Source of the DNA: Calditrichia bacterium
GTDB taxonomy: Bacteria; Calditrichota; Calditrichia; RBG-13-44-9; J075
Direction: 5' to 3'
Length of the DNA: 64,000 nt
NCBI GenBank assembly: GCA_028284905.1
Contig: JANQQU010000026.1
Location: forward strand, 57,252-121,251
Position numbers and translations under genes: made by a program. Numbering within the stretch: the stretch's first letter is position 1; each line of letters begins with the position of its first letter. The notes beneath the pieces were generated by a model. It made no database searches. It had not been told where the DNA came from and saw only the letters and a program-made list of their open reading frames with translations. Below are positions 6-44,522 of this stretch, one piece after another.

Positions 6-1094
6 GTGAAAGGGGACTTTGAATACATCCCCAATAGTAAGCATTCGCTTAAAGCCGGTTTTTGGGTCGGCAATCTTGAATTGATTCTGGAAAATTATTT
101 TGATAATCAACAAACCCTCGACGAGCGGGTGGAAACCCAGTACGGCTCGGTTTATCTGCAGGAAGCATTTCGCCCGATCCCACAGCTCATTCTAAAAGGG
201 GGATTGCGTGGCAATTTTATCGGAGAAGGGGACTATACCCGGCTCGAGCCACGTTTCTCCATGGAGTATATCTATAGCCAGGACCTGCTTTACCAGTTTG
301 CCTACGGACGTTACTACCAATTTTTGACACTGATTACCAACGAAGCCTTCAGCGGGTTTGACACCTGGCTTACCACCGGAGATGGGGTGGCGCCGGCCTG
401 GGGAGATCAATTTGTATTCGGTGTGAAATCCCGCCCCTGGGAAGGCTACAGTCTTGATGTAGAATTGTATTATCGCTCTATGCGGGAATTGTTCGAATTG
501 AATCCCCGGGTGTTCGATCCTGCCGGTTTGGATTATGCAGATCTCTTTCGTTTCGGTGAAGGATATTCTTACGGCGCAGAATTTTTCCTGGAAAAGAAGC
601 GTGGTAAAGTAACCGGCTTTCTCGGGTATACGCTCGGCACCAGCCGCCGTCAGTTTCCCAATTTCAACAACAACGATGCTTACCCGCCGAAATACGATCG
701 TATTCATGATGTTAACCTGGTTGCGAATTATAATCTTGGTCGTAACTGGCGGTTTACCGGAGTGTTTAACTATGCTACCGGTCAGGCAGTAACCGAAGTT
801 TTAGGCCGGTATTCTGTGCAATTGCCGACAGCTTCGGAAGAACGGGATCCATTTATTGTTGGTACACTCAACGCCAGCCGTTTGCCGGCTTATCATCGTA
901 TGGATTTTGGCTTCACTAAGAACGGGCGATTCTTTGGATTCTCGGACTATGAGTTGCAGTTACAGTTAATCAACGTTTATTCCCGTCGTAATATCTGGTT
1001 CTATTCTTACGATTTTGACACGAACCCAATTGAGCGGGAAGACGTACGAATGCTCCCGATTATTCCGAATGTATCCTTAACGTTGGATTTCTAG
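6..1094 (+). CDS. outer-membrane beta-barrel protein, C-terminal fragment (TonB-dependent-receptor-like); its 5' end lies upstream of the window
   Basis: Open frame runs off the left edge. Alternating beta-strand pattern rich in Y/G/N and a C-terminal aromatic (…LTLDF) typical of OM barrels. Followed by a lipoprotein gene, as is common for TonB-receptor loci. Confidence 0.45.
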   Translation: MKGDFEYIPNSKHSLKAGFWVGNLELILENYFDNQQTLDERVETQYGSVYLQEAFRPIPQLILKGGLRGNFIGEGDYTRLEPRFSMEYIYSQDLLYQFAYGRYYQFLTLITNEAFSGFDTWLTTGDGVAPAWGDQFVFGVKSRPWEGYSLDVELYYRSMRELFELNPRVFDPAGLDYADLFRFGEGYSYGAEFFLEKKRGKVTGFLGYTLGTSRRQFPNFNNNDAYPPKYDRIHDVNLVANYNLGRNWRFTGVFNYATGQAVTEVLGRYSVQLPTASEERDPFIVGTLNASRLPAYHRMDFGFTKNGRFFGFSDYELQLQLINVYSRRNIWFYSYDFDTNPIEREDVRMLPIIPNVSLTLDF

Positions 1095-1156
1095 CGCTCG
1101 CAACAGTCTGGTAAATGTCGAATAAAAGTTTTGATCTCACAGGAGACTATAAAATC

Positions 1157-2056
1157 ATGCGTAATATTTTAAATACATTGATAATGTTTGTGCTGGCCTT
1201 CATGCTCTTTAGCAGTTGCGAAGTAACCAATAGTGAAGAATTTGTGCCGGAATATTTTGTTGAATCCTATCAGTTCGCAATGGAACCTTTACAGCCGGTA
1301 AGATTGTCCCGGACTGTTGCTTTCGATCAGGCCTATAACTTTGAGGCGCAGGCGGTGAGAAATGCCAGCGTTAAGATTTCGATGCTAGATAATAGTGGCA
1401 ATGTCGAGCAAGTGCTGGATTATGCCGAAACTTCGCCCGGCGTATATATGCCTGCCGATACGACCCATCGTGTGCAGCCGCGGGCAACCTATTTGCTGGA
1501 AGCGCTGGTTCCCGGAGACGAGAATGTGCTGGTGCGTTCCCAAACGACGATTCCCGATACTTTCCGGATTGTCGATACCAATGCCGACACCCTGATCTAT
1601 CAGGCCACTGACCAGCTGGAAATCGTTGTCACACAAAGTTTTGTGGAAGGGCGCCAGAATGTGTTTGTATTTTCCACGGAAGCATTCGATATCCGTTTTG
1701 ATAATCTGACCCCGCTCTTCTTCGAGTTTCTTGATGAAGGTGAAGATGACCTGGAAGATTTTCGGGTGAATGAGTCGCCACCGGTAAATGAAGGGAATTA
1801 TGACCTCAATCCGGATGGTACCCTGACAATAAAATTGCCCTGGCTGGCGGTGGTTTTTTATGGCCAGAACAAAATTACTGCGAATGCGATTGATGATAAT
1901 ATTTTTGACTTTGTTATCGGTAGTGAGCTGCAGGTGAATCCCTCAACATTATCACCGGGAGAGATTCCCAATATCGTCGATCACGTCGAGAACGGTACCG
2001 GCATCTTCGGCAGCTACGCGCGGATTACGGATTTTATTTATATTCAGCGCCAGTAA
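1157..2056 (+). CDS. lipoprotein of unknown function
   Basis: AGGAGA lies 10 nt upstream of ATG 1157. Signal peptide with lipobox (…LFSSC). Sits directly downstream of an OM barrel gene. Confidence 0.5.
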   Translation: MRNILNTLIMFVLAFMLFSSCEVTNSEEFVPEYFVESYQFAMEPLQPVRLSRTVAFDQAYNFEAQAVRNASVKISMLDNSGNVEQVLDYAETSPGVYMPADTTHRVQPRATYLLEALVPGDENVLVRSQTTIPDTFRIVDTNADTLIYQATDQLEIVVTQSFVEGRQNVFVFSTEAFDIRFDNLTPLFFEFLDEGEDDLEDFRVNESPPVNEGNYDLNPDGTLTIKLPWLAVVFYGQNKITANAIDDNIFDFVIGSELQVNPSTLSPGEIPNIVDHVENGTGIFGSYARITDFIYIQRQ

Positions 2057-2078
2057 ATCTGCTAGCAGATTTAACCCT

Positions 2079-2206
2079 CTCGTTCCCATCCCGGAGAGCC
2101 GGGATGGGAATGCGTTATACGGGAAACTCTGTTTCCCATTATATCTTCGCTCGCGAAACAGAGTTTCGCCAATAATTGCGTGCCCAAACGGGAGTTTGGG
2201 CACGAG
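2079..2206. repeat. 128 bp MITE-like element with three hairpins, copy 1
   Basis: Terminal inverted repeats ctcgttccca/tgggcacgag. Internal hairpins cccatcccgg-agag-ccgggatggg, gaaactctgtttc…gaaacagagtttc, and gcccaaac-ggga-gtttgggc. Located between convergent genes. Confidence 0.65.
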
Positions 2207-2244
2207 TAGCAATCTGTTTGGATTGCGTGCCACTGCCACTAATC

Positions 2245-3816
2245 TTATGGCCCACTACTTTCAACTTCATTATAAAGTTCTCTCAGCTGAAGTAACTCCT
2301 CCTTCAACTCCGCTGTAATCGCTTCATTTCCAGCCACGCCGTAAATATTGTTTAGCTCTGCGGGATCCTGTAGCAAATCAAACAATTCCCAGATATTATC
2401 ATTGTAGTAGTAAATCAGCTTATGTTGATAGGTGCGAACGCCATAATGCTGCTTGACGCTATGCCAGCCATGAGGATATTCGTAGTAGTGATAATACATC
2501 GACTTCCGCCAGCTATCAGGAGTTTGGTTATCAAAGAGTGGCCGGAGTGAATTTCCCTGCATTTCTTCCGGAATCTCGACGCCGGCAATATCCAGAAATG
2601 TCGGGGCAAAATCGAGATTGAGCACCATTGCATCGGAGACCTCTCCGGACTTAATCATGCCCGGCAGGCGCATCACCAGCGGCATTCCCAGGGATTCTTC
2701 ATACATGAAACGCTTATCGTACCAACCATGCTCACCGAGGTAAAAGCCCTGGTCGGAAGTGTAAATAACAAGCGTATTTTCCGCCAGCCCATTTTCATCA
2801 AGATAGGCGAGCACCCGGCCAATATTTTCATCAACGGCTGCCACGCTGCGTAGATAGTCCTTCATATAGCGTTGATATTTCCAAACAGCGAGGTCCTTGC
2901 CAGTAGGCTGCTTTTCCCGAAAATCTTTTCGGATTGGATCATAGTGGGCATCCCAGGCTGCTTTCTGTTCCGGGGTCAATCTATTATAAGTGGCTATCCA
3001 GGATTTTACTGCATCGAAAGTCCCATGCCCGCCGGTACCGGTTTCTTCTCCAAAATCCTCCGGCATTAATTTCATATCCATGGACATATACATATCCGCA
3101 ATGCGCATATCCTGATGTGCGGCTGCCTCGCGGCTTTCGTAGTTATCGAAAAAGGTTTCCGGTAATGGCAAGTCTTCATCTTTGTACATGGCAAAGTGGC
3201 GGGGGGCCGGCATCCAGTTGCGATGCGGTGCCTTGTGGTGATAAAGCATGCAGAATGGTTTATCCGGATCGCGATTCTTGAGCGCATCCAAGGTGATATC
3301 TGTGATCACATCCGTGGTATAACCTGTGTGACTGAGAGTGTCGCCATTAGCGATCATCGTCGGGTTATAATAAGGGCCCTGGCCAATCAGAACATTCCAG
3401 TAATCGAAACCGGTCGGTTGGGTTTTCAGATGCCATTTGCCGACCACTGCGGTAAAATATCCGGCCTTCTGCAGAAGCTTTGGAAAAGTCATTTGACTGC
3501 CGTCGAAACGATCACGATTGTCTCGCAGCCCATTGAGATGGCTATACTTACCAGTAAGCATTACCGCCCGGCTCGGCGCACAAATAGAATTCGTGACAAA
3601 GCTGTTAGTGAAGCGGATGCCCTCGTTGGCAATCCGGTCAATATTTGGGGTGTCAATCAGCTTACTGCCGTAGCTGCTGATTGCCTGCTCGGCATGATCA
3701 TCGGTCATAATGAAGAGAATGTTCAGCGGCTTTTTCGCTGGTGGCTTTTCAACTTTACGGGATACGCAGGATGGTAAGAGGAAAGCGAGAATCAACACAA
3801 GAAAGATGCGCTTCAT
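2245..3816 (-). CDS. sulfatase (formylglycine-dependent arylsulfatase family), lipoprotein
   Basis: N-terminal LPSC lipobox. CAPSR formylglycine motif and MTDDH metal-binding start typical of sulfatases. Confidence 0.85.
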   Translation of the reverse strand: MKRIFLVLILAFLLPSCVSRKVEKPPAKKPLNILFIMTDDHAEQAISSYGSKLIDTPNIDRIANEGIRFTNSFVTNSICAPSRAVMLTGKYSHLNGLRDNRDRFDGSQMTFPKLLQKAGYFTAVVGKWHLKTQPTGFDYWNVLIGQGPYYNPTMIANGDTLSHTGYTTDVITDITLDALKNRDPDKPFCMLYHHKAPHRNWMPAPRHFAMYKDEDLPLPETFFDNYESREAAAHQDMRIADMYMSMDMKLMPEDFGEETGTGGHGTFDAVKSWIATYNRLTPEQKAAWDAHYDPIRKDFREKQPTGKDLAVWKYQRYMKDYLRSVAAVDENIGRVLAYLDENGLAENTLVIYTSDQGFYLGEHGWYDKRFMYEESLGMPLVMRLPGMIKSGEVSDAMVLNLDFAPTFLDIAGVEIPEEMQGNSLRPLFDNQTPDSWRKSMYYHYYEYPHGWHSVKQHYGVRTYQHKLIYYYNDNIWELFDLLQDPAELNNIYGVAGNEAITAELKEELLQLRELYNEVESSGP

Positions 3817-3899
3817 AACGGCTCCTTATAGGCTGTTTGTCTGAAGCGCAATTTATCGAATTTGGGGGGGATAGACAAATTGAGAACGTTTAGACAGTC

Positions 3900-4988
3900 T
3901 TACATCTCCACAAAAGCCAAACAAACCGGATTGGGCATCGGCGTGGAAATGCCATTACTTTTCAGCAAGCCATTTGCCGGATTGATGCGGAATGTAGTAA
4001 TCGTATCGCTATCCTGGTTGCCGGCCAGCAGCCAGCGGCCGGATGGATCGAGATTGAGCTCTCGGGGAGTTTTGCCGCCCGTTGGTTCATGTCCAATCGC
4101 TTTCAATTTTCCGGAAGCAGCGTCGAAGGCAAAAATGGCAATACTGTCATGCCCGCGATTAGAGCCGTAAACATATTTGCCATTAGCGCTAACGCGAATG
4201 GCTGCGCAGGAATAGGGGGCATGTGGATCCGCATCAGGTAGTGTCGAAATCGTCTGCTGATGTTTCAGGCGGCCGTCCCGGTGAGAAAATACCGAAACGG
4301 TGCTATCCAGTTCATTGATAACAAAGGCATGACTGCCGCTGGGATGAAAAGCCAGATGACGTGGACCGGCACCGGGCTGCACAGCAGCAAAGGGTTGCTC
4401 ATGAGGATACAAACGTCCTTTTTCGCCATCATAGCGATAGATTATTACCTTGTCGATACCGAGGTCTGCTACGAAGAGGAATCTCCCGGACGGATCGAAG
4501 CGGGCGATGTGGGCATGGGGACTTTCCTGACGCTCCGGATTAGCTCCTTTCCCTTCATGATGAGCAATATCTGTTGCCGGCTCCAGTCTGCCATCCGGCA
4601 GGATCGGATGGACCGCAACACTGCCGGTAACATAGTGCGCGGAAATAACATGCTTCTCATTTTTATCCAAAGTAAGATGGCAGGGAGCACCGCCATGGGC
4701 CGGTTGATGATTGAGATATTGCAATGCGCCGCCGCGCGCGTCCATTCGGTATGCATAGACTGCCGGTGTTCTGCCACCAACCGTTTCCTGCACTGCATAG
4801 AGGCATCGCCTGCCGGGCGCAATCGTCAGGTACGAAGGATTGCTGATGTCATAAGCTGCCAGCTTAACATCGCTAATCTCACCGCTATCCTGATCAAAGA
4901 CAGCGGTGTAAATTCCTTTGCCGCTACCGGAGACAAATGAGAGCGGGACAGTATATGTACCTACGTATAATCTTATTTTTTTCGCCAT
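3900..4988 (-). CDS. 7-bladed beta-propeller lactonase (6-phosphogluconolactonase-like)
   Basis: N-terminal YVGTYT…GIY signature and repeated propeller blades of the lactonase/3-carboxymuconate cyclase family. Confidence 0.7.
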   Translation of the reverse strand: MAKKIRLYVGTYTVPLSFVSGSGKGIYTAVFDQDSGEISDVKLAAYDISNPSYLTIAPGRRCLYAVQETVGGRTPAVYAYRMDARGGALQYLNHQPAHGGAPCHLTLDKNEKHVISAHYVTGSVAVHPILPDGRLEPATDIAHHEGKGANPERQESPHAHIARFDPSGRFLFVADLGIDKVIIYRYDGEKGRLYPHEQPFAAVQPGAGPRHLAFHPSGSHAFVINELDSTVSVFSHRDGRLKHQQTISTLPDADPHAPYSCAAIRVSANGKYVYGSNRGHDSIAIFAFDAASGKLKAIGHEPTGGKTPRELNLDPSGRWLLAGNQDSDTITTFRINPANGLLKSNGISTPMPNPVCLAFVEM

Positions 4989-5026
4989 GACAATGTCTCC
5001 GGAGTTGCTCGCTATTGTTTCCCGAT

Positions 5027-6133
5027 TTACGCACTAACGCCACTTTCTGCGACTTGCTTTTTTTTCCCCAGGTCCTTTAAGAAACGCAGGTGGGCAACAA
5101 CGGCGGAAATAACCGAGGGATAGCTAACATACATTACCGAAAATTCTTCGCAGGTTTTCTGGACGATCTTACTGAGCGCGGGATAATGAATGTGGCAAAT
5201 TTTTGCGAAAAGATGGTGCTCGATCTGGAAATTCAATCCACCGAGATACCAGGTGGCCAGTTTGTTTTTCGGGGCAAAATTAGCGGTTGTTTCAACTTCG
5301 TGGATCGCCCACTCATTTTCAATGTTTCCGCTCTTCGGATCTGGCTCGGGGAATTCATTACCGTCGATGGTGTGCGCTAATTGGAAAACGACCGACAGCG
5401 TTAATCCAAGCACCAGATGAACACCAATCAAAGTAATCAGAACATAGTGTAAAGGATGGAAAAAGAGTGGCAATATGAACATGTATCCCACATAGAAAAT
5501 TTTGGTCAGGAAAAACAATGTCGCTTCGGAAACGGAAGGTTTGGCAAGTTTGTAATCGCCGATTTTCCCGGTGAAAAACTTCTTGAAATCGGCATAACCC
5601 ATCCAGGAAATCGTTAACAGGCTATATACCGGAAACGCATACCAATGCTGAAAACGGTGCCAGGGCCGCCATTCCTGATTAGGGCTCAGTCTTAATAAAC
5701 CGCCGGTGTAAAGATCGTCATCTAATTCATGAATGTTGGTGTAGGTATGGTGAAGTATATTGTGTTTTTGTTTCCAGAGCATACTGTTGCCGCCGATAAT
5801 ATCCATAGTAAAACCCATGATTTTATTGACGGTTTTGTTGCGGGAATAGCTGCCGTGGTTACCATCGTGCATGATGTTAAACCCAACAAGAACAAATCCT
5901 TGCGCCAGGGCGAATGCTGTAATGATAGCCATGATTAGTGAAGTGGAAAAGAAAACCAGCAGCAGATAGGAAGCAACCAGCCAGACTAATATAATAGCTG
6001 TTTTTAAATACATTCGCCAATTGGCATTCTTTGATAATTTCTTTTCGGAAAAATATTCATCCACTCTCTTTTTCAGCGTTTTTTTGAAATCGCCGCGTGC
6101 AGGAAAACTAATCTTCTTCATGGAAATTCTCAC
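5027..6133 (-). CDS. membrane fatty-acid desaturase
   Basis: Three histidine boxes (HDGNHG, HNILHH, EHHLF) and N-terminal TM helices. Confidence 0.8.
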   Translation of the reverse strand: MRISMKKISFPARGDFKKTLKKRVDEYFSEKKLSKNANWRMYLKTAIILVWLVASYLLLVFFSTSLIMAIITAFALAQGFVLVGFNIMHDGNHGSYSRNKTVNKIMGFTMDIIGGNSMLWKQKHNILHHTYTNIHELDDDLYTGGLLRLSPNQEWRPWHRFQHWYAFPVYSLLTISWMGYADFKKFFTGKIGDYKLAKPSVSEATLFFLTKIFYVGYMFILPLFFHPLHYVLITLIGVHLVLGLTLSVVFQLAHTIDGNEFPEPDPKSGNIENEWAIHEVETTANFAPKNKLATWYLGGLNFQIEHHLFAKICHIHYPALSKIVQKTCEEFSVMYVSYPSVISAVVAHLRFLKDLGKKKQVAESGVSA

Positions 6134-21422: not shown

Positions 21423-22406
21423 ATGAAACATCTCATGCTATTAATTTTTGTCATTACTACATTTACATTTTTTTCAAACGCCCAAAGCGGTGAAAAAAAA
21501 TGGTACAAAGGCAACACCCACACTCACACCCTCAACAGTGACGGCGACAGCACCCCGGACGAAGTCGCCCGTTGGTATCGCGAGCACGGCTATCACTTCC
21601 TGGTACTGACCGATCACAACTTCCTCACCAACGTCGATGCCCTGAATGCCCTACATGGCGCCGATGAACAGTATCTGATCATCCCCGGGGAAGAAGTCAC
21701 CGATAAATACGGAAGAAAGCCCATCCACGTCAATGGACTGAATTTAGAGACCTTGGTGCCTCCGCAAGGCGGCAATAGCGTGGTGGAAACCCTGCAGCGC
21801 AATATCGATGCAGTGAACGATGTCGGAGGATTACCACACATCAATCATCCCAACTTTGGCTGGGCCATTACCGCGGCGGAAATGGCTGAAGTGCAGCGCT
21901 ATAAACTGTTTGAAGTATTTAACGGACATCCGCTTATCAATAATTTCGGTGGAGGAGGGATGCCGGGATTGGAAGAAATGTGGGATATCATCCTCTCCAG
22001 CGGCAAGCTGCTTTACGGTGTGGCAACAGACGATGCGCATCATTTTAAAAGTCCCTGGAACCGCAATGCCGCTGCACCGGGGCGAGGTTGGGTCTTCGTG
22101 CGTGCGGATTCCCTAAACGCGGCAGCGATTATCGCAGCATTGGCTAGCGGCGATTTTTATGCATCCACCGGCGTCAGCTTAAAGGATTACCAGGTGGATG
22201 GAGAAAAAATGGTCATCGATATAGAAAATAATCGAGGCAGTCAACAGCGTTTTAGCACCCTGTTTATTGGAGAGAATGGCGAGATTCTGAAGACGGATGT
22301 AGAGAATCCGGCTATTTATCTATTTAAGGGAGAAGAGAAATATGTGCGGGCAAAAGTCATTGATAGTAATGGCAATATTGCCTGGACGCAGCCGGTGATG
22401 CGGTGA
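21423..22406 (+). CDS. secreted PHP-domain metal-dependent phosphoesterase (CehA/McbA-like)
   Basis: AAGAGGA RBS. Signal peptide followed by KGNTHTHT and LTDHN PHP motifs. The longer ORF from 21321 overlaps a repeat element and has no RBS. Confidence 0.7.
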   Translation: MKHLMLLIFVITTFTFFSNAQSGEKKWYKGNTHTHTLNSDGDSTPDEVARWYREHGYHFLVLTDHNFLTNVDALNALHGADEQYLIIPGEEVTDKYGRKPIHVNGLNLETLVPPQGGNSVVETLQRNIDAVNDVGGLPHINHPNFGWAITAAEMAEVQRYKLFEVFNGHPLINNFGGGGMPGLEEMWDIILSSGKLLYGVATDDAHHFKSPWNRNAAAPGRGWVFVRADSLNAAAIIAALASGDFYASTGVSLKDYQVDGEKMVIDIENNRGSQQRFSTLFIGENGEILKTDVENPAIYLFKGEEKYVRAKVIDSNGNIAWTQPVMR

Positions 22407-22500
22407 ACAGTTGTCAGTGATCAGTAAACAGTGAACAGTTATCAGTGAACAGTTATCAGTGAACAGTTATCAGTGAACAGTTATCAGTGAACAGCTGATA
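22403..22500. repeat. tandem array of 14 bp cagtgaacagttat units (~6 copies)
   Basis: Starts at the stop codon of the PHP gene. The leading tgaacagttgtcagtgatcagtaaacag is repeated directly at 23030-23057. Confidence 0.75.
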
Positions 22501-23029: not shown

Positions 23030-23140
23030 GAACAGTTGTCAGTGATCAGTTAACAGAGAACATGAAACAAATAACAATCGTTAATTTGATCGATAATGAT
23101 AACTGTTCACTGATAACTGTCAACTGTCAACTGTTAATTC
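23030..23140. repeat. direct copy plus inverted copies of the cagtgaacagttat family
   Basis: tgaacagttgtcagtgatcagttaacag is a direct repeat of 22404-22430. 23101-23138 (taactgttcactgataactgtcaactgtcaactgtt) holds inverted units overlapping the rtcB stop. Confidence 0.7.
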
Positions 23141-24630
23141 GTGTCCTTAATAACAAAGCGCGCATTCAATTTCGCCACGGTCGAAGCCAGCCCAGCCTGT
23201 TCCACGGACTTCAGCACTTCCTGAAAATCCTTGTAGGCTGCCGGTGCTTCATCCTTGGGATATTTGCGGCAATTGGTAAGAATATCCATGTCGTCAAATG
23301 AAGCATCAACTGCCTGCTGATCCAATTCACGAATCGCATGCTTTCGCCCCATTTTTCGCCCCGCGCCATGATTCACGCTGTAGCAGCTTTCAATCGCGCC
23401 CGGTTCCCCAACCATTACCGCGGATCCCGCTTGCGGATTTCCCGGTAAGAGAATCGGATGGCCGGTGCTGTAGAAAGGCGTATCCTTCAGGGCAAAATGG
23501 TTCGCCGGAAATGCCCGGGTCGCCCCTTTCCGGTGCACCCACATTTTCCGGTTGTCGACAACTTCCCGACGAGCGATGTTGTGACTGATAAAATACACCA
23601 GCTCGCCAGTGGTGCCGGGCAAGACTTCCTGGAAAGCTTCCAGAACCAAGGCGTTAATCAACATATGGTTAACCGTCGCAAAATTGCCGCCCATGCTCAT
23701 ATCATCAATGTAAGCGTCCGCTTCCGGAGTACCGAGCGGCGCGTAAACCAGGTGTTTGCTATCTGCCGGAAAGGGAATGCTCCAGGTGTTAAACATCTTT
23801 TGCAGATTTCGGAATTGACATTGCGCGAGATGATAACCGAATCCCCGCGAACCACAATGAGAGAAAAATGCCACGTGACCATCCTTCAGGCCAAACACAT
23901 CGGCAATTTCCCGGGCGCGCGGCGAATCTGCGACTTCAACAATTTCGCATTCTCCAAAATGATTTCCGCCGCCGTAAGTCCCCAATTGCATTACTTTATC
24001 GGCAAATTTAGGAAATTGTCCACTGTCGATTAGATACTCGAGGCGGTTTTCCAAAGAAGCTCTGGTCTCGTCATGGCCAGTATGGAATGCATCCTCGCAA
24101 CGTTCTGCCCAGTGAGTAGGAATTCCCAGTGCTTCACATACCGCTGAAGAAGCGCCCTCTATTACAACACGCTTCCCGATAGCTGCATCTACCCGGCGTG
24201 ATTTTTTCGCCGAGCGTTGGCTTTTCCCTGCACCGGTTGGCGTCCGTTCACAGATAGCGTTGATCAGCGCCCGGCGGATGCTTTTTTCCTGAATCTCATC
24301 CGCAGGAATGTTCAATTGCAATAAACTCATCGAGCATTTGATGTCAACGCCTACCGGTCCGGGATAAATATGACTGGGAGAAACCAGTACGGAGCCAATC
24401 GGCGCGCCGTAACCAGCATGGCCGTCCGGATTAAGAACGACATCGGAAACGCCGGGAGCGGTAGCACAGTTCATTGCCTGCTGGAGGCAAATCTGGTCAA
24501 ATCCTTCCCGGATAGTTTCATTGCCGAATACTTTTACCGGTTTGTATTTGCCATCTTCTACCGGGAGAATTGCTGTTGCATCTCCGGTGGTAATCATCTG
24601 GCTGTTTAACTTGATTTCATCCGTCTTCAT
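23134..24630 (-). CDS. rtcB: RtcB RNA-splicing/repair ligase (3'-phosphate/5'-OH)
   Basis: GGGNHF, SVNHGAGR and SHNIARRE motifs and Cys/His metal ligands of the RtcB family. Confidence 0.9.
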   Translation of the reverse strand: MKTDEIKLNSQMITTGDATAILPVEDGKYKPVKVFGNETIREGFDQICLQQAMNCATAPGVSDVVLNPDGHAGYGAPIGSVLVSPSHIYPGPVGVDIKCSMSLLQLNIPADEIQEKSIRRALINAICERTPTGAGKSQRSAKKSRRVDAAIGKRVVIEGASSAVCEALGIPTHWAERCEDAFHTGHDETRASLENRLEYLIDSGQFPKFADKVMQLGTYGGGNHFGECEIVEVADSPRAREIADVFGLKDGHVAFFSHCGSRGFGYHLAQCQFRNLQKMFNTWSIPFPADSKHLVYAPLGTPEADAYIDDMSMGGNFATVNHMLINALVLEAFQEVLPGTTGELVYFISHNIARREVVDNRKMWVHRKGATRAFPANHFALKDTPFYSTGHPILLPGNPQAGSAVMVGEPGAIESCYSVNHGAGRKMGRKHAIRELDQQAVDASFDDMDILTNCRKYPKDEAPAAYKDFQEVLKSVEQAGLASTVAKLNARFVIKDTN

Positions 24631-24690
24631 GACGTTTCCTTTCGATATTAAAAACTAAATTGGACTGTAAAAAAGAAATTCATTATTTCC

Positions 24691-24804
24691 ATCGACAAGT
24701 AGTTGAGAAACATATCCCGACGTTTTCATTTAAACTACCGCCTTGACGGGCTGAGTCGTGAGTCTCAGCATCTTCGGGGTCCTGTAGTTCCTCAGGCATT
24801 CGAC
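24691..24804 (-). ncRNA. Y-RNA-like module 6 (Ro-binding-type stem only; may double as rtcB leader)
   Basis: Outer helix GUCGA/UCGAU and inner helix GAGGAAC/GUUUCUC flank the conserved internal loop (5' AAUGCCU, 3' …ACUUGUCG). The interior holds simple hairpins and no tRNA-like domain. Confidence 0.35.
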
Positions 24805-24822
24805 TTCAACAATTCTACCGCC

Positions 24823-24911
24823 GATAACAAAAGGGAGTGAAACGTTGACGGCCACCTGGGCCGGCAGGATTCGAACCTGCTTTAACCCTTGTAGTTTCAC
24901 CGGCATTCATC
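24823..24911 (-). ncRNA. Y-RNA-like module 5 (stem plus T-arm-like hairpin)
   Basis: Outer GAUGA/UUAUC and inner GUGAAAC/GUUUCAC helices flank a conserved AAUGC…UUUUG loop. Interior has GCAGG-UUCGAAU-CCUGC (T-arm-like) and CGGCC-CAGGU-GGCCG hairpins. Confidence 0.4.
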
Positions 24912-24930
24912 AGCAGTTTTTCTTCATATT

Positions 24931-25004
24931 AAAATTTAGCGGCGACAAGAGTTGGTGAAACGTTGGCTTTTTCCTCAAGTTGTAGTTCCACCAGCATTCG
25001 CCGC
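24931..25004 (-). ncRNA. Y-RNA-like module 4 (minimal stem-loop, YrlB-like)
   Basis: GCGGCGA-AUGCUG-GUGGAAC-UACA … GUUUCAC-CAACUCUUG-UCGCCGC with a 23 nt apical loop and no tRNA-like domain. Followed by UAAAUUUU. Confidence 0.45.
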
Positions 25005-25017
25005 ATTAAACCATTAT

Positions 25018-25050
25018 TAATTCGGAATTCGGAATTCCGAATTCCGAATT
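25018..25050. repeat. palindromic GAATTC-rich spacer (aattcggaattcggaattccgaattccgaatt)
   Basis: Perfectly self-complementary ttcggaattccgaa core located between Y modules 3 and 4. One of three similar spacers. Confidence 0.7.
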
Positions 25051-25188
25051 AAAAAAAACGCGGCGACAAGGATTAGTGAAACTTTCTCCATGCTCTATCC
25101 AATTGAGCTACGCCAATCTTGCGATCGACGCCGGGATTCGAACCCGGAACCCTGGCATTAAAAGTGTAGTTTCACCAGCATTCGCCGC
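25051..25188 (-). ncRNA. Y-RNA-like module 3 (YrlA-like, with permuted tRNA-like domain)
   Basis: 5' strand GCGGCGA-AUGCUG-GUGAAAC-UACA. Then T-arm CCGGG-UUCGAAU-CCCGG, an acceptor-like hairpin CGUCGAU-CGCAAG-AUUGGCG, UA, and D-arm GCUC-AAUUGGAUA-GAGC. 3' strand GUUUCAC-UAAUCCUUG-UCGCCGC followed by GUUUUUUUU. Confidence 0.55.
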
Positions 25189-25194
25189 ATTTAG

Positions 25195-25271
25195 CCGGAG
25201 CGAAGGGACTCGAACCCCTGACCATGAGATTTCACCTCATTGCTCTCAATTACCAACTGAGCTACGCTCCG
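25195..25271 (-). tRNA. tRNA-Phe(GAA)-like cloverleaf B (13 nt D-loop, no encoded CCA)
   Basis: Minus-strand read: CGGAGCG UA GCUC AGUUGGUAAUUGA GAGC A AUGAG GUGAAAU CUCAU GGUC AGGGG UUCGAGU CCCUU CGCUCCG G. Has a 7 bp acceptor and anticodon GAA. Its 3' end lies 7 nt before the 5' end of Y module 3. Confidence 0.5.
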
Positions 25272-25276
25272 TAAAG

Positions 25277-25309
25277 AATTCGGAATTCCGAACTCCGAAT
25301 TCCGAATTT
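25277..25309. repeat. palindromic GAATTC-rich spacer, copy 2
   Basis: gaattcggaattccgaactccgaattccgaatt, located between module 2 and tRNA-like B. Confidence 0.7.
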
Positions 25310-25428
25310 AAAAAAGTTACAACGACAAGTGTTTGTGAAACATGCTCTACCAACTGAGCTACGCCAATCTTGCAATTGACGCCGGGATTCGAACCCGGGA
25401 CAGTGTAGTTTCACAGGCATTCGTTGTT
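25310..25428 (-). ncRNA. Y-RNA-like module 2 (compact YrlA-like, with permuted tRNA-like domain)
   Basis: ACAACGA-AUGCCU-GUGAAAC-UACA-CUGU, then T-arm CCGGG-UUCGAAU-CCCGG, acceptor-like hairpin CGUCAAU-UGCAAG-AUUGGCG, UA, D-arm GCUC-AGUUGGUA-GAGC, AU. 3' strand GUUUCAC-AAACACUUG-UCGUUGU followed by AACUUUUUU. The outer helix covaries relative to modules 1, 3 and 4. Confidence 0.55.
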
Positions 25429-25431
25429 TAG

Positions 25432-25505
25432 CCGGAGCGAAGGGATTCGAACCCCTGACACGTGGATTTTCACTCCACTGCTCGTACCAACTGAGCTACG
25501 CTCCG
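25432..25505 (-). tRNA. tRNA-Phe(GAA)-like cloverleaf A (no encoded CCA)
   Basis: Minus-strand read: CGGAGCG UA GCUC AGUUGGUAC GAGC A GUGGA GUGAAAA UCCAC GUGUC AGGGG UUCGAAU CCCUU CGCUCCG G. Canonical arms and anticodon GAA. Unusual C1:G72 and G73. Its 3' end lies about 7 nt before the 5' end of Y module 2. Confidence 0.55.
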
Positions 25506-25509
25506 TAGT

Positions 25510-25542
25510 GAATTCGGAATTCCGAATTTCGAATTCCGAATT
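25510..25542. repeat. palindromic GAATTC-rich spacer, copy 3
   Basis: gaattcggaattccgaatttcgaattccgaatt, located between module 1 and tRNA-like A. Confidence 0.7.
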
Positions 25543-25543
25543 A

Positions 25544-25769
25544 GAAAAATTAGCGGCGACAAGGGTTAACGAAACGTTACCGCGCTCTACCAACTGAGCT
25601 ACGCCAACCGTTTATAAAAAAGTTCAAAGTTCAACGTTCAGAGTTTAGAGTTCAGAGTTGCTCACTTGCCCCTTTGGGGTTTGCTCGTCTGACGAACTTA
25701 TAGGGTTGGCGCCGGGATTCGAACCCGGGACCTCGTCATCCTCAATGTAGTTTCGCAAGCATTCGCCGC
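25544..25769 (-). ncRNA. Y-RNA-like module 1 (YrlA-like; acceptor-like helix interrupted by ~95 nt repeat-rich insertion)
   Basis: GCGGCGA-AUGCUUG-CGAAAC-UACA, then T-arm CCGGG-UUCGAAU-CCCGG, then CGCCAAC. A 95 nt insert follows, containing gttcaaagttcaacgttcagagtttagagttcagagtt repeats. Then GUUGGCG-UA, D-arm GCUC-AGUUGGUA-GAGC, and 3' strand GUUUCG-UUAACCCUUG-UCGCCGC followed by UAAUUUUU. Confidence 0.45.
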
Positions 25770-25812
25770 TAATTTTTCTCAAGATTTCAAAGATCAAAAA
25801 TCGTTTATTTTC

Positions 25813-25837
25813 GCCGGGATGGGAACGCCATCCCGGC
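25813..25837. terminator. GC-rich 10 bp hairpin at the 3' end of rsr (possible bidirectional terminator)
   Basis: gccgggatgg-gaacg-ccatcccggc followed on the plus strand by GGUUUUUCGGUUU. The stem uses the same cccatcccgg motif as the 128 bp repeat family. Confidence 0.4.
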
Positions 25838-25848
25838 GGTTTTTCGGT

Positions 25849-27414
25849 TTACAGGCTTATTCTCTTAATTTCATTCGTGAAGTAGTCTTCACTTAAACGT
25901 CCGGCTGCGAAATCGCTGATGATCCGGAATACCTGGTCGGAGAATCCACCGACATGGAGGATGTCCTCCCGCTGGTAAGTTTGGCTGGTTTGATACGGTT
26001 GAATATCCAAACATACCAGTTTTGCCTGCGGATTCCGTTGCCGGAACTTATTCCATTCCCACATCATGCCGGTGCCGTTTCTTCCACTCCGGGCATCAAC
26101 CCAGGACTGATTGTCGGAGACATACAATACCAGGTCGCCTTTTGCAGCGTTTTTGTTGAGCAATTTCAGCGGTGCGCTGCAATTGGTGCTGCCGCCACCG
26201 ATGTTTGCCAATTTTTCCGCATTGGTCATGATGCTGTCCCGGGAGTTCAGGCGAACTTTCACCACCCGGCCTTCGAAGGGAATTATTTCCGCTTCGCTAT
26301 TTTTCCGGAGCACTGCTGCGGCGACCAGCGCTGCGATATCGATACATCTTGCTTTGCTGGTAGCGCCTTTCCGGCTGCCGGTTGCTGCCGTCCAGGTCAT
26401 TGAACCAGAGACATCCGGGCAAACATAGACTTTGCCTTCAATTGCCGGCACATTTTCTACCGCGATTTCCATCGCATCTTGCAATGCGTTGATAATTTTC
26501 CGCGGTATGTCTCCGCTTGCCGCCAGGTACGCCATCATCAACTGATAGGGGAATACCCGCGATTTTGCTATGGCCGTCCGGTCTCTCAACCGCTCGGCGA
26601 TCATGGAGACGATTTCACCGGCATTGCCCTGGAATACACCTTGTCTGGCAAAAGTGTTCAGATTCATTCTGGTCATTTGCCAGGAGGCATTTTGAGCGAT
26701 AGCCGTCCATTCCCACTTGCCTAAAGACAGGGAAGTGAGCATCTGGAAAGGCACGTTCGGCATCGGCTGGTTCTTATCCGCCTTGTAGCTTTCGTATGCA
26801 CGAACAATTTCCGGGAGCATTTCCGCGTTATAATCCCGGCCGATCAGGTAGCCATAAAGCGCTTCCCGGCTCGCTGATTGCGGCTTCGGGTGAACCATCT
26901 TCAGAATATCGACGATCGAAGGGCTGTTGCCCACTGACGCCCGGAAGATCTGTTCGTCACTACGACTTTCCAGCCATTGCCGCACCAGTCGTTTCGGCAG
27001 GGTGCCAAGGGATTTACGTCCTACTACGCCGGAACGCATTATCTGAACGAAATTCCGCAGCATTTTGCCATTGTCAATTACCCGTTCGAATACTACCGGT
27101 AGTAATTCCGGTGCATCCACTGAAAGCCTGGCACATAACAGGGCGGGCATATCTTTCATATAGCCATATTCCCTGGCGTAGATCGCTGTTCTCGCGATAT
27201 ATTCAGCATCCACTTCTTCGCAAAGAGAAAGCACTGTTTCCAGTTGCATTCCTGCGGACGCATAGAATGTATCGTTGAGACAGCCAGTGACCGCGTATTG
27301 TGCCAATGCTTCTTCCGGGGAACGCTGGTATGCCGGTGCGCCTTCCTGATTTACTGCATTCGTTCTGCGCAGCATTCGTCCCCGAATCGATTGAAACAAA
27401 TTCTTGTTAGCCAT
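25849..27414 (-). CDS. rsr: Ro60-related protein Rsr (TROVE domain plus vWA domain)
   Basis: TROVE-domain N-terminus and a C-terminal vWA/MIDAS-like region. Located beside the Y-RNA-like array and rtcB, with rtcR divergent. Confidence 0.85.
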   Translation of the reverse strand: MANKNLFQSIRGRMLRRTNAVNQEGAPAYQRSPEEALAQYAVTGCLNDTFYASAGMQLETVLSLCEEVDAEYIARTAIYAREYGYMKDMPALLCARLSVDAPELLPVVFERVIDNGKMLRNFVQIMRSGVVGRKSLGTLPKRLVRQWLESRSDEQIFRASVGNSPSIVDILKMVHPKPQSASREALYGYLIGRDYNAEMLPEIVRAYESYKADKNQPMPNVPFQMLTSLSLGKWEWTAIAQNASWQMTRMNLNTFARQGVFQGNAGEIVSMIAERLRDRTAIAKSRVFPYQLMMAYLAASGDIPRKIINALQDAMEIAVENVPAIEGKVYVCPDVSGSMTWTAATGSRKGATSKARCIDIAALVAAAVLRKNSEAEIIPFEGRVVKVRLNSRDSIMTNAEKLANIGGGSTNCSAPLKLLNKNAAKGDLVLYVSDNQSWVDARSGRNGTGMMWEWNKFRQRNPQAKLVCLDIQPYQTSQTYQREDILHVGGFSDQVFRIISDFAAGRLSEDYFTNEIKRISL

Positions 27415-27470: not shown

Positions 27471-27486
27471 ATCAATTGGCGTGCCA
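27471..27486 (-). promoter_or_regulatory. candidate sigma54 (-24/-12) promoter for rsr-Y RNA-rtcB
   Basis: Minus strand reads TGGCAC-GCCAA-TTGAT. The -24 element is perfect with correct spacing; the -12 element reads TTGA rather than TTGC. It lies about 60 nt upstream of the rsr ATG, in the region divergent from the sigma54 activator rtcR. Confidence 0.4.
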
Positions 27487-27632: not shown

Positions 27633-29282
27633 GTGAAATTGGTTCATTTACCCCGAAAGCAGAAGAGATCTCCGGGTAAGCCGAGAAATAAAGTTGTTCT
27701 TGGATTATTAGGGATCAATCTGGACGGCGGAAAGCGTGCTGAGCGTTGGGAGAAATGGCGACCCACCGTTTCGATATGTATGCATGAAGATTTTCTGGTG
27801 CACCGGTATGAATTGCTTTACGAGGAAAAACACTGGGAATTGGCCAAGTTTGTTGCAGCAGATATGCAGACTATTTCTCCAGAAACTAAAATCAATCTTC
27901 ATCAAATCAATCTGCATAATCCTTGGGATTTCGAAGAAGTATATGGGGAATTGCTTGATTTTGCCGGCACTTACAACTTCGACCCGGACAGTGAAGAATA
28001 TCTCATCCATATAACTACCGGTACTCATGTCCACCAAATTTCCCTCTTCTTATTAGTCGAAGCGAAATATCTTCCCGGCAAGCTGCTGCAAACATCTCCT
28101 CCGCGCCGGAAAACCGAAGAAAAAATCGGTACTTTTCGGATCATCGATCTGGACCTTTCCCGGTATGATAAACTTGCCTCCCGCTTCCGGGTAGAACAGG
28201 AGAAGGGGGTTTTCTTCCTGAAATCCGGTATAGAGACTCGTAATGCCGCTTTCAATAAATTGATCGAACAAATTGAGCAAGTGGCGATTTATTCCCGTGC
28301 CCCTATTTTATTGACCGGGCCAACCGGCGCCGGAAAATCCCAACTCGCCCGAAAAATTTATGCCCTTAAAAAATTACGCCGCCAGGTAGAAGGAGAGTTG
28401 GTTGAAGTGAATTGCGCCACGCTGCGCGGGGATACCGCCATGTCCACATTGTTTGGCCATGTAAAAGGCGCTTTTACCGGCGCGATGCAGGACAGACCGG
28501 GGCAATTAAAGCTGGCAGATAACGGCATCCTCTTCCTGGATGAGATCGGCGAGCTTGGCCCGGATGAACAAGCGATGTTGCTCCGTGCACTGGAAGAAAA
28601 ACGTTTTTTACCAGTGGGGGCAGATAAAGAGGCGAAGAGTGATTTTCAGTTAATTGCCGGAACCAATCGCAATCTGCAGAAAGCAGTAAAGGCGGGAGAG
28701 TTTCGGGAGGACTTGCTGGCGCGGATCAATCTTTGGACATTTCGCTTACCTGGTTTACAGGCTCGCCGGGAGGATATTGCGCCGAATTTACGTTACGAAT
28801 TGGAACGTTTTGCCCGGGAAAATAATTCCGCAGTCAATTTTAATAAAGAAGCGCGGGAAGCATTTATGGACTTTGCTACCGGCCCAGCAGCAGTATGGGA
28901 TGGGAATTTCCGCGATCTCAATGCCGCAGTTACTCGTATGGCGACACTCGCCCGGGGAGGACGAATTACCGGGGAAATTGTCCGGGATGAAATTGAGCGT
29001 CTGCAGGAAAACTGGCAAACAACAGATGGCCGGGAGGAGAGCGAAAACCTACTCGAGAAAATATTGGCACCAGAAGATTTGGCCGAATTGGATATGTTCG
29101 ATCGCTTTCAGTTGACTGGTGTACTGAAAGTTTGCCGGCAATCAAGCAGCCTTTCCGCTGCCGGTCGGGAACTCTTCGAAATGTCCCGCCAACGGAAAAA
29201 AAATGCAAACGATGCCGATCGACTGCGAAAATATTTGCAGCGTTTTGGAATAACCTGGCAGATGATTCAGGAAGTGGATTAG
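27633..29282 (+). CDS. rtcR: sigma54-dependent transcriptional regulator RtcR (N-terminal CARF-like sensor, AAA+ sigma54 activator, C-terminal HTH)
   Basis: N-terminus collinear with E. coli RtcR (…RWEKWRPT…SPETKINLHQINLHNPWDFEEVYGELLDFAGTYNFDPDSEEYLIHITTGTHVHQISLFLLVEAKYLPGKLLQTSPP…). Walker A GPTGAGKS and GAFTGA sigma54-contact motif. Confidence 0.9.
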   Translation: MKLVHLPRKQKRSPGKPRNKVVLGLLGINLDGGKRAERWEKWRPTVSICMHEDFLVHRYELLYEEKHWELAKFVAADMQTISPETKINLHQINLHNPWDFEEVYGELLDFAGTYNFDPDSEEYLIHITTGTHVHQISLFLLVEAKYLPGKLLQTSPPRRKTEEKIGTFRIIDLDLSRYDKLASRFRVEQEKGVFFLKSGIETRNAAFNKLIEQIEQVAIYSRAPILLTGPTGAGKSQLARKIYALKKLRRQVEGELVEVNCATLRGDTAMSTLFGHVKGAFTGAMQDRPGQLKLADNGILFLDEIGELGPDEQAMLLRALEEKRFLPVGADKEAKSDFQLIAGTNRNLQKAVKAGEFREDLLARINLWTFRLPGLQARREDIAPNLRYELERFARENNSAVNFNKEAREAFMDFATGPAAVWDGNFRDLNAAVTRMATLARGGRITGEIVRDEIERLQENWQTTDGREESENLLEKILAPEDLAELDMFDRFQLTGVLKVCRQSSSLSAAGRELFEMSRQRKKNANDADRLRKYLQRFGITWQMIQEVD

Positions 29283-29554
29283 CGGCTCAGGGATTTGAGT
29301 GCTTCGTTGAATGTGTTGTAGTCGATGTGCGCGTCATTGAGATATAACTTGAGCAATTCAACCGAGATGTTGTGGTTGTGCGGAATCGTTAATCGCCGGA
29401 AAGGGAAGTGAGTTTCCCGTAACACGGTAACGGAGACATTTTGAAAATCCTCTGCATAGCCCATCAACTTAAAGGCGCTCATGATGCGGTCTTTGTTGAT
29501 GCGCGGAACCTGAGAAATTTCGGCCGTGTTATTATTTGTTTGGTATTTTTTCAT
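29279..29554 (-). CDS. putative toxin partner of HicB-like antitoxin (weak HicA-like resemblance)
   Basis: 91 aa. Overlaps the upstream 60-aa HicB-like gene by 23 nt. Its C-terminus (…TIPHNHN.SVELLKLYL…) loosely resembles the HicA …VPHP…L..IL… segment. Confidence 0.35.
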   Translation of the reverse strand: MKKYQTNNNTAEISQVPRINKDRIMSAFKLMGYAEDFQNVSVTVLRETHFPFRRLTIPHNHNISVELLKLYLNDAHIDYNTFNEALKSLSR

Positions 29555-29714
29555 GACGTTGCTTATAGCTTATAATGTACGCTTCAATCGCCGATCTTAA
29601 CAAATTCCTGGCAGCCTCCGGCGTGGTGGCTTCCACATGACAACCTTCCAGATTGGGACATGTGCCGATGTAGAGATCTTCTGCTACTTTACGAATGACA
29701 ATGCGTAACTTCAT
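29532..29714 (-). CDS. HicB-like (UPF0150) antitoxin-domain protein
   Basis: …DLYIGTCPNLEGCHVEATTPEAARNLLRSAIEAYI… matches the HicB/UPF0150 core (…PDLPGC…G.T.EEA……AIE.Y…). Confidence 0.55.
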   Translation of the reverse strand: MKLRIVIRKVAEDLYIGTCPNLEGCHVEATTPEAARNLLRSAIEAYIISYKQRHEKIPNK

Positions 29715-35135: not shown

Positions 35136-35247
35136 GAATGTCCAATATCCAATGCTCAATATCCAATGTTGAAGTTGCAAAACCGCTCCGGAGGTTCTAG
35201 CATACTTGGAAATTGAGCATTGGATGTTGGACATTGGACATTGAAAA
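35136..35247. repeat. CCAAT-type imperfect palindrome (long hairpin)
   Basis: Arm aatgtccaatatccaatgctcaatatccaatg and arm cattggatgttggacattggacatt flank a center containing the ctccggag palindrome. Sits between the TPR gene and tesB. Confidence 0.6.
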
Positions 35248-44401: not shown

Positions 44402-44487
44402 TCGCCACGTTCATTTCTTATCTTTAAAATTTTTCTTCTCATCCATCGTATCGGATAAATGATGATTTCATCTCGGTTGCAAGCGAT

Positions 44488-44522
44488 CAACGAACAACGG
44501 ATAACGAACAACGAACAACCGA
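44488..44522. repeat. aacgaacaac tandem repeat
   Basis: caacgaacaacggataacgaacaacgaacaacc. The same motif recurs at 56054-56070. Confidence 0.6.

Follow-up and report, generated by a model that had tools for sequence, protein, structure and literature searches.

The closest described relative of the locus treated here is the rsr-yrlBA-rtcBA operon of Salmonella Typhimurium (Chen 2014, PMC4201824; Hughes 2020, PMC7790460), which is controlled by the regulator RtcR and activated by tRNA halves. The tRNA-Phe(GAA) is among the tRNAs cleaved in Salmonella, i.e. it is cut after A36, between two adenines (A36/A37), by a nuclease whose products activate RtcR, and 5' tRNA halves carrying a cyclic phosphate bind RtcR (PMC7790460). 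In Mycobacterium smegmatis, the Y RNA YrlA is cut by RNase P and has a CCA added, and the original YrlA survey discarded matches that overlapped tandem tRNAs (PMC4201824). Here we describe a stretch of 64,000 nucleotides (nt) of a Calditrichia bacterium (assembly GCA_028284905.1, contig JANQQU010000026.1, positions 57,252 to 121,251), hereafter the window, in which an array of YrlA-type Y RNA modules (Y1 to Y6) contains two tRNA-Phe(GAA)-like cloverleaves, i.e. copy A at 25432-25505 and copy B at 25195-25271, both on the minus strand.

Like the Salmonella operon, the window has a divergently oriented rtcR whose product carries a CARF-type domain, a sigma54-like promoter, and rsr (encoding the bacterial Ro60 orthologue) with YrlA-type Y RNAs, which have a permuted tRNA-like domain, and then rtcB behind it. 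It differs by having six Y modules instead of two, by the lack of rtcA and by the addition of two free-standing cloverleaves, with acceptor stems and anticodons of their own, between Y modules.

Extra tRNAs tied to rtcB are known from a second system, the long tRNA arrays (L-arrays) of Anabaena, which are induced together with rtcB under translational stress (Santamaria-Gomez 2021, PMC8421152); the full text of that study makes no mention of Rsr or Y RNA. A tRNA array unit has been defined by a minimum of 20 tRNA genes and a density of two or more per kb (PMC4758250). Common to the L-arrays (PMC8421152, PMC4758250) and the window are extra, non-housekeeping tRNAs linked to tRNA damage or translational stress and to rtcB. 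In contrast to the L-arrays, the window has two tRNAs only, both of the Phe type and without an encoded CCA; these were the only tRNA-type genes that ARAGORN and Rfam found in the 64 kb.

A third group of comparable systems are precursors punctuated by tRNAs, such as those of mitochondrial tRNA punctuation, the plant tRNA-snoRNA genes, the tRNA-miRNA units of murine gammaherpesvirus 68 (MHV68) and MALAT1-mascRNA. As in these, a tRNA shape abuts a small RNA in the window, and cuts by RNase P and RNase Z would set the ends of the neighbour. Unlike these eukaryotic, organellar and viral cases, the partner in the window is a bacterial Y RNA, the anticodon arm is conserved and the likeness is one of geometry (gaps of 4-6 nt in the window, and of 4-13 nt in 32 junctions).

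Two complete cloverleaves between Y RNA modules

Both elements are complete cloverleaves of the tRNA type and not chance folds. With the Rfam tRNA family (RF00005), copy A scored 60.7 bits and copy B 52.7 bits against a gathering score of 29, corresponding to E-values over the whole window of 1e-10 and 2e-8, respectively. At the gathering threshold, the window gave exactly four Rfam matches, i.e. these two tRNAs and the YrlA modules Y2 and Y3. The minimum-energy structure predicted by RNAfold for copy A was the cloverleaf itself (-30.7 kcal/mol, z = -3.4), and copy B folded into acceptor, anticodon and T arms together with an alternative, extended D hairpin. An earlier note, made from the letters of the window, had described full cloverleaves at these very positions, which the RF00005 scores and the covariation reported below bear out, and had proposed ARAGORN as a check. 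The program called copy A as tRNA-Phe(GAA) at default settings and copy B at a relaxed threshold only, owing to its 13-nt D-loop.

Direct reading of the sequence confirmed most of the details given in that note. The two copies have the acceptor stem CGGAGCG/CGCUCCG (C1:G72) followed by G73, the anticodon loop core U33-GAA-A37, variable loops of GUGUC (copy A) and GGUC (copy B) and a T arm of AGGGG-UUCGA(A/G)U-CCCUU; the trailer is CUA and neither copy encodes a CCA. Three points had to be amended: the variable base of the T loop is A or G (R) and not K; the D-loop of copy B does have 13 nt, with an insertion of 4 nt relative to copy A instead of 5 nt; and the cloverleaves do lie just upstream of Y2 and Y3, but the gap between G73 and the start of the Rfam YrlA match is 4 nt for copy A and Y2 and 6 nt for copy B and Y3, and not about 7 nt. 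The core positions U8, A14, G18, G19, U33, G53, U54, U55, C56, A58 and C61 are all present, as read from the alignment of homologues. At the A21 site there is a pyrimidine in copy A and in the homologues L082, L083 and L089 (locus numbers are ours), which have a 9-nt D-loop, and an A in copy B with its 13-nt loop.

Both cloverleaves stand between YrlA matches and are not enclosed by the Ro-binding stem of the Y modules (GNCGAAUGC ... CUUGUCGNC). False ARAGORN calls of tRNAs inside Y modules do occur in other loci (L024, L030 and L004). For the window, an artefact arising from the tRNA-like domains of the Y RNAs was ruled out, as the two elements lie outside the YrlA matches and have acceptor stems of their own.

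Conservation of the cloverleaf in related genomes

The closest relatives by Rsr were retrieved through exact look-up of the protein. In L082 (Rsr 86 % identical), Y1 is followed by the spacer hairpin and a tRNA one base different from copy A, where the contig ends. In L083 to L086 and L089 (Rsr 70-71 % identical), the tRNA directly follows rsr and lies 4 nt before a Y module. Finally, L092 (RtcB 95 % identical) starts with the last 8 nt of the tRNA, followed by CTAAAT and a short Y module, so that its junction reads CGCTCCGG-CTAAAT-GCGGCGAATGC. These last 8 nt and the junction were all that was recovered of a copy B orthologue among the short-read contigs L081, L082, L092, L093 and L094, which all break inside GGAATTC or other heptamer repeats.

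In an alignment of five sequences, i.e. copies A and B and those of three other genomes (Rsr 70-86 % identical), standard pairs occupied all 105 of the 105 pair cells of the 7/4/5/5-bp stems. Five pairs had changed on both sides (6:67, 27:43, 30:40, 31:39 and 49:65), and the anticodon stem of copy B differs from that of copy A by three compensatory pair changes. The covariation score was reached by none of 500 shuffles, and slid controls paired at 39-57 %. Copy A is 98.6 % identical to its counterpart in L082, while the rsr coding sequences are 84 % and the spacers 72-81 % identical; the corresponding values for L083 are 85 % for the tRNA and 69 % for rsr. All homologues agree in GAA, U33, A37, C1:G72, G73, C74 and A(-1); as trailer, the window has CUA, and L083 and L089 have CAA. 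Taken together, these patterns point to a cloverleaf under selection.

A scan of metagenome contigs for the exact pattern of T arm and acceptor returned one unrelated tRNA 3' fragment (L088), and two scans of viral contigs for the tRNA-Phe-like family returned no match. Since none of these scans gave a further member, the family is probably rare or confined to this lineage.

In L083 to L086 (around 2090-2840), rsr, the tRNA-Phe-like element and three Y modules are followed by a convergent gene of glycoside hydrolase family 31 (GH31), and no rtcB is adjacent; therefore, the tRNA-Phe-like element travels with rsr and the Y RNAs and not with rtcB.

A tRNA-Phe body with a deviant acceptor end

Over positions 7-63, the identity to tRNA-Phe genes annotated in unrelated phages, which served as the reference for the body, is 89.5 %; the best matches in the phage collection were mostly annotated as tRNA-Phe. 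With canonical bacterial tRNA-Phe(GAA), the window copies share the anticodon GAA, U33, A37, the D arm GCUC/GAGC, G18 and G19, the variable loop GUGUC and the T loop UUCGA. They differ in having C1:G72 instead of G1:C72, G73 instead of A73, a G at position 32, no CCA, an extra D-loop nucleotide in copy A and the 13-nt D-loop in copy B, and in lying in a predicted stress-induced operon of the sigma54 type and not in a housekeeping locus for tRNAs. Within the 7-nt anticodon loop, U33 and A37 are present in all homologues; position 32, usually a pyrimidine, is G in copy A, copy B and L082 and U in L083 and L089.

That positions 1:72 and 73 are atypical for tRNA-Phe had been pointed out before, and the comparison agrees: the other tRNA-Phe(GAA) sampled had G1:C72 in 16 of 16 cases and A73 in 15 of 16. 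The combination of C1:G72 with G73 was found in none of around 550 other tRNAs sampled; tRNAs with C1:G72 did occur among them (Pro, Ile, Lys, Val, Arg and Ser), none with G73. Descent from the tRNA-Phe of acidobacterial arrays was ruled out, as those are unrelated in sequence, have G1:C72 and A73 and mostly encode the CCA. The elements thus combine the body and anticodon of tRNA-Phe with an acceptor end that is rewired, and they encode no CCA.

Junctions between tRNAs and Y RNAs in other rsr loci

Rsr homologues number in the thousands in databases, and we fetched 80 Rsr relatives from genome assemblies. By type, the fetched loci comprised 33 with rtcR, 30 with a tRNA array and 21 with neither. 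The array-type loci, mostly of Pyrinomonadaceae and Blastocatellia, have 5-33 tRNA genes directly upstream of rsr on the same strand (e.g. L003, L008, L017, L025, L030, L045, L051 and L060, with arrays roughly at locus coordinates 500-5900), and several of the acidobacterial arrays reach at least 20 tRNAs; with its two tRNA genes, the window lies below this number, which defines an array unit.

Y modules were located by their Ro-binding 5' motif and a check for the complementary 3' strand. This stem-pairing check was passed by 223 of the 248 motifs, all of them on the rsr strand and none on the opposite strand. Sizes fell into two main classes of around 55-73 nt and around 104-147 nt, with few intermediate or longer modules. 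In 21 of the 30 array loci, the Y modules are interleaved with the tRNAs of the array; L025, for instance, has the order ...Cys Ser Y His Asp ... Asn Ile Y Y Y rsr. Gaps between the 3' end of a tRNA and the stem of the following Y module are bimodal in length: 32 junctions in 21 loci, mostly acidobacterial tRNA arrays beside rsr, measure 4-13 nt, and the shortest of the other gaps has 36 nt. At the short junctions, Y is preceded by tRNAs for Ser, Ile, Glu, Met, Asn, Phe, Cys, Trp, Gln or Asp.

A further arrangement was found in an RtcR operon from a metagenome of the Joint Genome Institute (JGI; 3300030616) with an Rsr 65 % identical to that of the window (L098, the same locus as L099; 5694-6482). 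Here, rsr is followed by three Y modules, tRNA-Arg(ACG), tRNA-Gly(GCC), tRNA-Pro(UGG), two Y modules and rtcA-hen1-pnkp instead of rtcB; one of the first three Y modules was detected by Rfam (42 bits) and the two short ones by reading the sequence. The tight spacing that the earlier note had seen in the window is thus kept in the closest relatives and recurs with other tRNAs in 21 loci and in L098, a recurrence that would fit co-transcription and end processing of the tRNA type. In the searchable literature, we found neither an account of Y RNAs lying among tRNA genes nor a paper in which tRNA arrays are paired with Rsr or Y RNA.

Two Schlesneria metagenome-assembled genomes (L033, 7688-7760; L042, 3364-3434) have a degenerate tRNA-like element between rsr and the first Y module. 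It lies 54-66 nt upstream of Y and is conserved in both; that of L033 was called as Arg-GCG with 43.8 bits. Moreover, phages harbour Ro-like genes in tRNA-rich regions, as in Myxococcus phage Mx1 (L096) and Streptomyces phage NootNoot (L097); the Ro of Mx1 shares 49 % identity with the Rsr of the window, and its gene lies near one for a peptidyl-tRNA hydrolase.

Organization of the locus

The small-RNA array (24686-25769, minus strand) lies between rsr and rtcB. Read along the minus strand from the divergent regulator onwards, the features are the following.

27633-29282 (+): rtcR, sigma54-dependent activator with an RtcR/CARF N-terminal domain, divergent from the operon (Pfam RtcR 1e-80, Sigma54_activat 7e-51)
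27471-27486 (-): sigma54-like promoter element TGGCACGCCAATTGAT, around 57 nt before the rsr start codon, read from the sequence
25849-27414 (-): rsr, bacterial Ro60 orthologue (Pfam vWA_Ro60 2e-15 and a weak TROVE match)
25811-25839 (-): hairpin of 12 bp directly past the rsr stop codon, conserved, in L082 with a compensatory change
25550-25769 (-): Y1, YrlA-type, carrying 97 nt of inserted sequence rich in heptamer repeats (Rfam YrlA 65.7 bits, gathering score 69)
25510-25542 (-): spacer hairpin 1, GGAATTC-heptamer palindrome after a U-rich tract (-15.6 kcal/mol), ending 5 nt before copy A
25432-25505 (-): copy A, tRNA-Phe(GAA)-like, with C1:G72, G73, G32, a 9-nt D-loop and no encoded CCA (Rfam tRNA 60.7 bits)
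25316-25427 (-): Y2, YrlA (82 bits, above the gathering score), starting 4 nt past G73 of copy A
25276-25308 (-): spacer hairpin 2, GGAATTC palindrome (-16.2 kcal/mol), ending 5 nt before copy B
25195-25271 (-): copy B, tRNA-Phe(GAA)-like, with a 13-nt D-loop and a 4-nt variable loop (Rfam tRNA 52.7 bits)
25057-25188 (-): Y3, YrlA (75.3 bits), starting 6 nt past G73 of copy B
25019-25050 (-): spacer hairpin 3, GGAATTC palindrome (-19.2 kcal/mol), with Y4 directly next and no tRNA between
24936-25004 (-): Y4, short Ro-binding stem without a tRNA-like domain (Rfam YrlA 38 bits, E = 3e-6; stem pairing verified)
24818-24913 (-): Y5, Ro-binding stem with a T-arm-like hairpin (Rfam YrlA 37.7 bits; stem-pairing check)
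24686-24806 (-): Y6 (Rfam YrlA 35.1 bits; stem-pairing check)
23134-24630 (-): rtcB, RNA 3'-phosphate/5'-OH ligase, the last gene of the operon (Pfam RtcB 9e-103)

Modules Y1, Y4, Y5 and Y6 come from a permissive Rfam search and lie below the gathering threshold, Y1 just under it because of the insertion in its loop. This insertion, in the loop of the acceptor-like stem, is hypervariable, i.e. of 97 nt in the window and shorter in L082 (6640-6784) and L093 (around 5645-5830), and rich in simple repeats in the window and L093; tandem repeats lie at 25619-25659 inside Y1.

The sigma54-like element TGGCAC-N5-TTGAT is found at -72/-68 of rsr in L081, L082, L093, L083 to L086 and L090. No sigma70-like promoter was matched within 24850-25850, including the regions in front of the tRNA copies. 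By analogy with the Salmonella rsr-yrlBA-rtcBA operon (PMC7790460), the simplest reading is that the array would form one RtcR-dependent transcript.

Behind each of the modules Y1, Y2 and Y3 come a U-rich tract and a palindromic hairpin of 12-13 bp made of GGAATTC heptamers (-15.6 to -19.2 kcal/mol), which in two cases ends 5 nt before a tRNA, i.e. copies A and B. The tracts (within 25300-25325, 25050-25068 and 25540-25560) come within a few nt of the GC-rich stem closing each module, with U6 after Y2 and U8 after Y3. Stem and tract could act like a terminator that attenuates read-through into rtcB; as their stems are long-range, these sites were not picked up in a scan for terminators.

Tandem repeats with a period of 7 nt (sometimes 14) are found at 22403-22494, 23097-23137, 25019-25050, 25276-25308, 25510-25542, 25619-25659, 35206-35243, 44484-44519, 55927-55951 and 56202-56233. 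Within the window, the palindromic GGAATTC version is limited to the Y array. Relatives carry other heptamers (CAGTTAT, GCGGAAT) at the same positions, where short-read contigs break.

The usual YrlA domain is permuted, with the order T arm, acceptor-like stem and D arm. Around 4490-4600 of L063, 7850-7960 of L065 and 2045-2150 of L071, the Ro-binding stem surrounds a complete, non-permuted cloverleaf in the normal order (D, anticodon and T arm), which ARAGORN called as tRNA-Leu or tRNA-Ser.

Beside rtcR, two overlapping small open reading frames (29279-29714, minus strand) are kept in L081, L082 and L093, one of 60 aa with a UPF0150/HicB-like match (E = 5e-7) and one of 91 aa without a match. 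They may represent a toxin-antitoxin pair adjoining the regulator of RNA repair. The TypA protein encoded in the window has its closest named matches in Calditrichia (73-77 % identity), and a domain of the type IX secretion system (T9SS) type is also encoded within the window, so that the source is probably a Calditrichota-like member of the FCB group.

Discussion

While the tRNA and Y RNA families and the type of operon are already known, complete tRNA genes embedded in Y RNA arrays and a conserved Phe variant with C1:G72 and G73 appear to be undescribed. Conservation and body identity argue that the two elements are genuine, selectively maintained and probably descended from tRNA-Phe(GAA). 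Given that tRNAs and Y RNAs are interleaved in many bacteria, our data suggest that both are made together and probably used together. The account that we favour, and which seems to us somewhat likelier to be right than wrong, is that the elements are operon-embedded, damage-inducible tRNA genes whose excision would also free Y RNAs.

According to this account, one transcript (rsr - Y1 - tRNA - Y2 - tRNA - Y3 - Y4 - Y5 - Y6 - rtcB) would start at the promoter of the RtcR/sigma54 type, and should therefore be made only when RtcR senses damaged tRNA. A cut by RNase P at C1 would free the Y RNA lying upstream, together with its U-tract and GGAATTC hairpin. The cut after G73 would be made by a 3' endonuclease, probably RNase Z since no CCA is encoded and the trailer is CUA or CAA; it would give the following Y RNA its 5' end, 4-6 nt before the Ro-binding stem, so that one set of tRNA-processing enzymes would release both classes of RNA. 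The released tRNA would presumably have a role of its own and not be scrap, since its anticodon arm is kept by compensatory change and GAA is invariant; most likely, it would serve as an extra, RtcR-induced tRNA-Phe variant in the response to tRNA damage. Its altered acceptor end (C1:G72, G73) may change the handling by enzymes or toxins that read the acceptor. A link of the elements to RtcR sensing is plausible by analogy with the cleavage of tRNA-Phe(GAA) in Salmonella (PMC7790460).

Several observations weigh against this account. The covariation rests on few independent events, as the alignment holds four distinct orthologous sequences and one paralogue. G32 is rare (7 of 555 tRNAs in the fetched loci, 1.3 %), and in copy A, the site at which A21 would normally close the D-loop is taken by an additional pyrimidine. 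The D-loop of copy B is longer than the ARAGORN defaults tolerate, and its inserted AAUUGAG pairs with CUCAGUU over 7 bp in the alternative D hairpin; this copy may be decaying. A73 has a role in tRNA-Phe identity, and all homologues have G73 and C1:G72 in place of A73 and G1:C72, so that G73 may weaken or abolish charging by phenylalanyl-tRNA synthetase (PheRS). A tRNA stands in front of only 32 of the 248 Y 5' motifs (13 %), the other 87 % having none, and four of the six Y modules of the window also lack one, so that a tRNA cannot be a general requirement for the maturation of Y RNAs. Lastly, the median gap between tRNAs in the arrays is 17 nt, and the tight spacing of tRNA and Y may in part be plain array density.

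Some of these points are shared by an explanation that we regard as unlikely, namely that the cloverleaves only recruit RNase P and RNase Z to set Y RNA ends and are degraded once excised, with plant tRNA-snoRNA genes, MHV68 tRNA-miRNA units and MALAT1-mascRNA as comparable cases. As the gap of 4-13 nt recurs with ten tRNA identities, it would be the presence of a tRNA that matters and not Phe; the lack of a CCA agrees with this, and G73, C1:G72 and G32 could be expected once charging is not required. However, RNase P and RNase Z need the acceptor/T domain and not the anticodon arm, and a role as mere handle leaves unexplained the three compensatory changes in the anticodon stem and the GAA, U33 and A37 invariant in all homologues. 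Likewise, the body is around 90 % identical to true tRNA-Phe genes, and most Y modules have no tRNA before them. Overall, the interpretation given in the earlier note is supported in part. The conserved anticodon arm and the altered acceptor end would both be accounted for if the elements were mimics of tRNA-Phe which, when cut at A36/A37 by the same anticodon nuclease that attacks the cellular tRNAs, soak up this nuclease or yield 5' halves that end in a 2',3'-cyclic phosphate, bind the RtcR CARF domain and reinforce the induction, a poorly chargeable end keeping them out of translation. Cleavage of tRNA-Phe(GAA) and binding of 5' halves by RtcR in Salmonella, together with the GAA-A37 of both window copies, speak for such a decoy or sentinel, as does the proposal that YrlA's tRNA-like domain is a competitive inhibitor of the nuclease (PMC7790460). 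Nevertheless, we consider it quite improbable: RtcR and its CARF domain bound halves of tRNA-Leu(UAG) best and those of tRNA-Phe less efficiently (PMC7790460), and the tRNAs in other RtcR operons and arrays are those for Arg, Gly and Pro or whole sets and not Phe, so that the theme looks like tRNA supply and not like a specific sentinel.

Two further explanations are, in our view, very hard to credit. If the linker of 4-6 nt stayed uncut, Rsr would gain, in a chimera of tRNA and Y RNA, a full tRNA-shaped bait for tRNA-binding enzymes on top of the tRNA-like domain that the Y RNA itself has; the linker is indeed very short and begins with the conserved C74 (CUA, CAA, CAA). To our knowledge, every known substrate of RNase Z or exonucleases that has the shape of a tRNA follows the rule of a free 3' acceptor end, which counts against a chimera, and the tRNAs before Y modules in array loci encode CCA and need release to work. 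The idea draws its appeal from Y RNAs being known tethers between Rsr and other proteins (PMC4201824). Nor do we give much credence to non-functional relics, i.e. decaying tRNA pseudogenes or detector artefacts. The false ARAGORN calls inside Y modules and the aberrant D-loop and variable loop of copy B, missed at default settings, are what such relics would predict, but both elements lie outside the Y modules with 7-bp acceptor stems of their own, and they show near-perfect conservation and compensatory changes while rsr is only 69-84 % identical at the nucleotide level.

Returning to the favoured account of damage-inducible tRNA genes, it is possible to go one step further, in a reading that we offer as tentative and rather doubtful. 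Y RNAs and extra tRNAs may form one co-transcribed and co-processed 'tRNA-damage cassette' across phyla, in which the tRNAs would be toxin-evading or sentinel variants, and the Y RNAs would have arisen from them and still work with them, either as decoys or as guides of Rsr in the clearance of broken tRNAs. The Acidobacteriota arrays, the Calditrichia-like tRNA-Phe variants and the RtcR operon with Arg, Gly and Pro tRNAs would all be examples. In the window, such a variant would be the tRNA-Phe with its rewired acceptor end (C1:G72, G73); the Y RNAs are themselves permuted tRNAs.

Regardless of such extensions, most of the interest lies in the general linkage of tRNAs and Y RNAs exposed here, which bears on the function of bacterial Ro60 and Y RNA beyond Deinococcus and Salmonella and on how the ends of Y RNAs are made. 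It physically links Rsr and Y RNA with stress-induced spare tRNA sets, the L-arrays already tied to rtcB, and provides natural material for the question of whether Y RNAs originated from tandem tRNAs. The odd acceptor end opens the question of a non-translating decoy versus a toxin-resistant spare tRNA, and the arrangement as a whole offers a testable route of Y RNA biogenesis via tRNA-processing enzymes.

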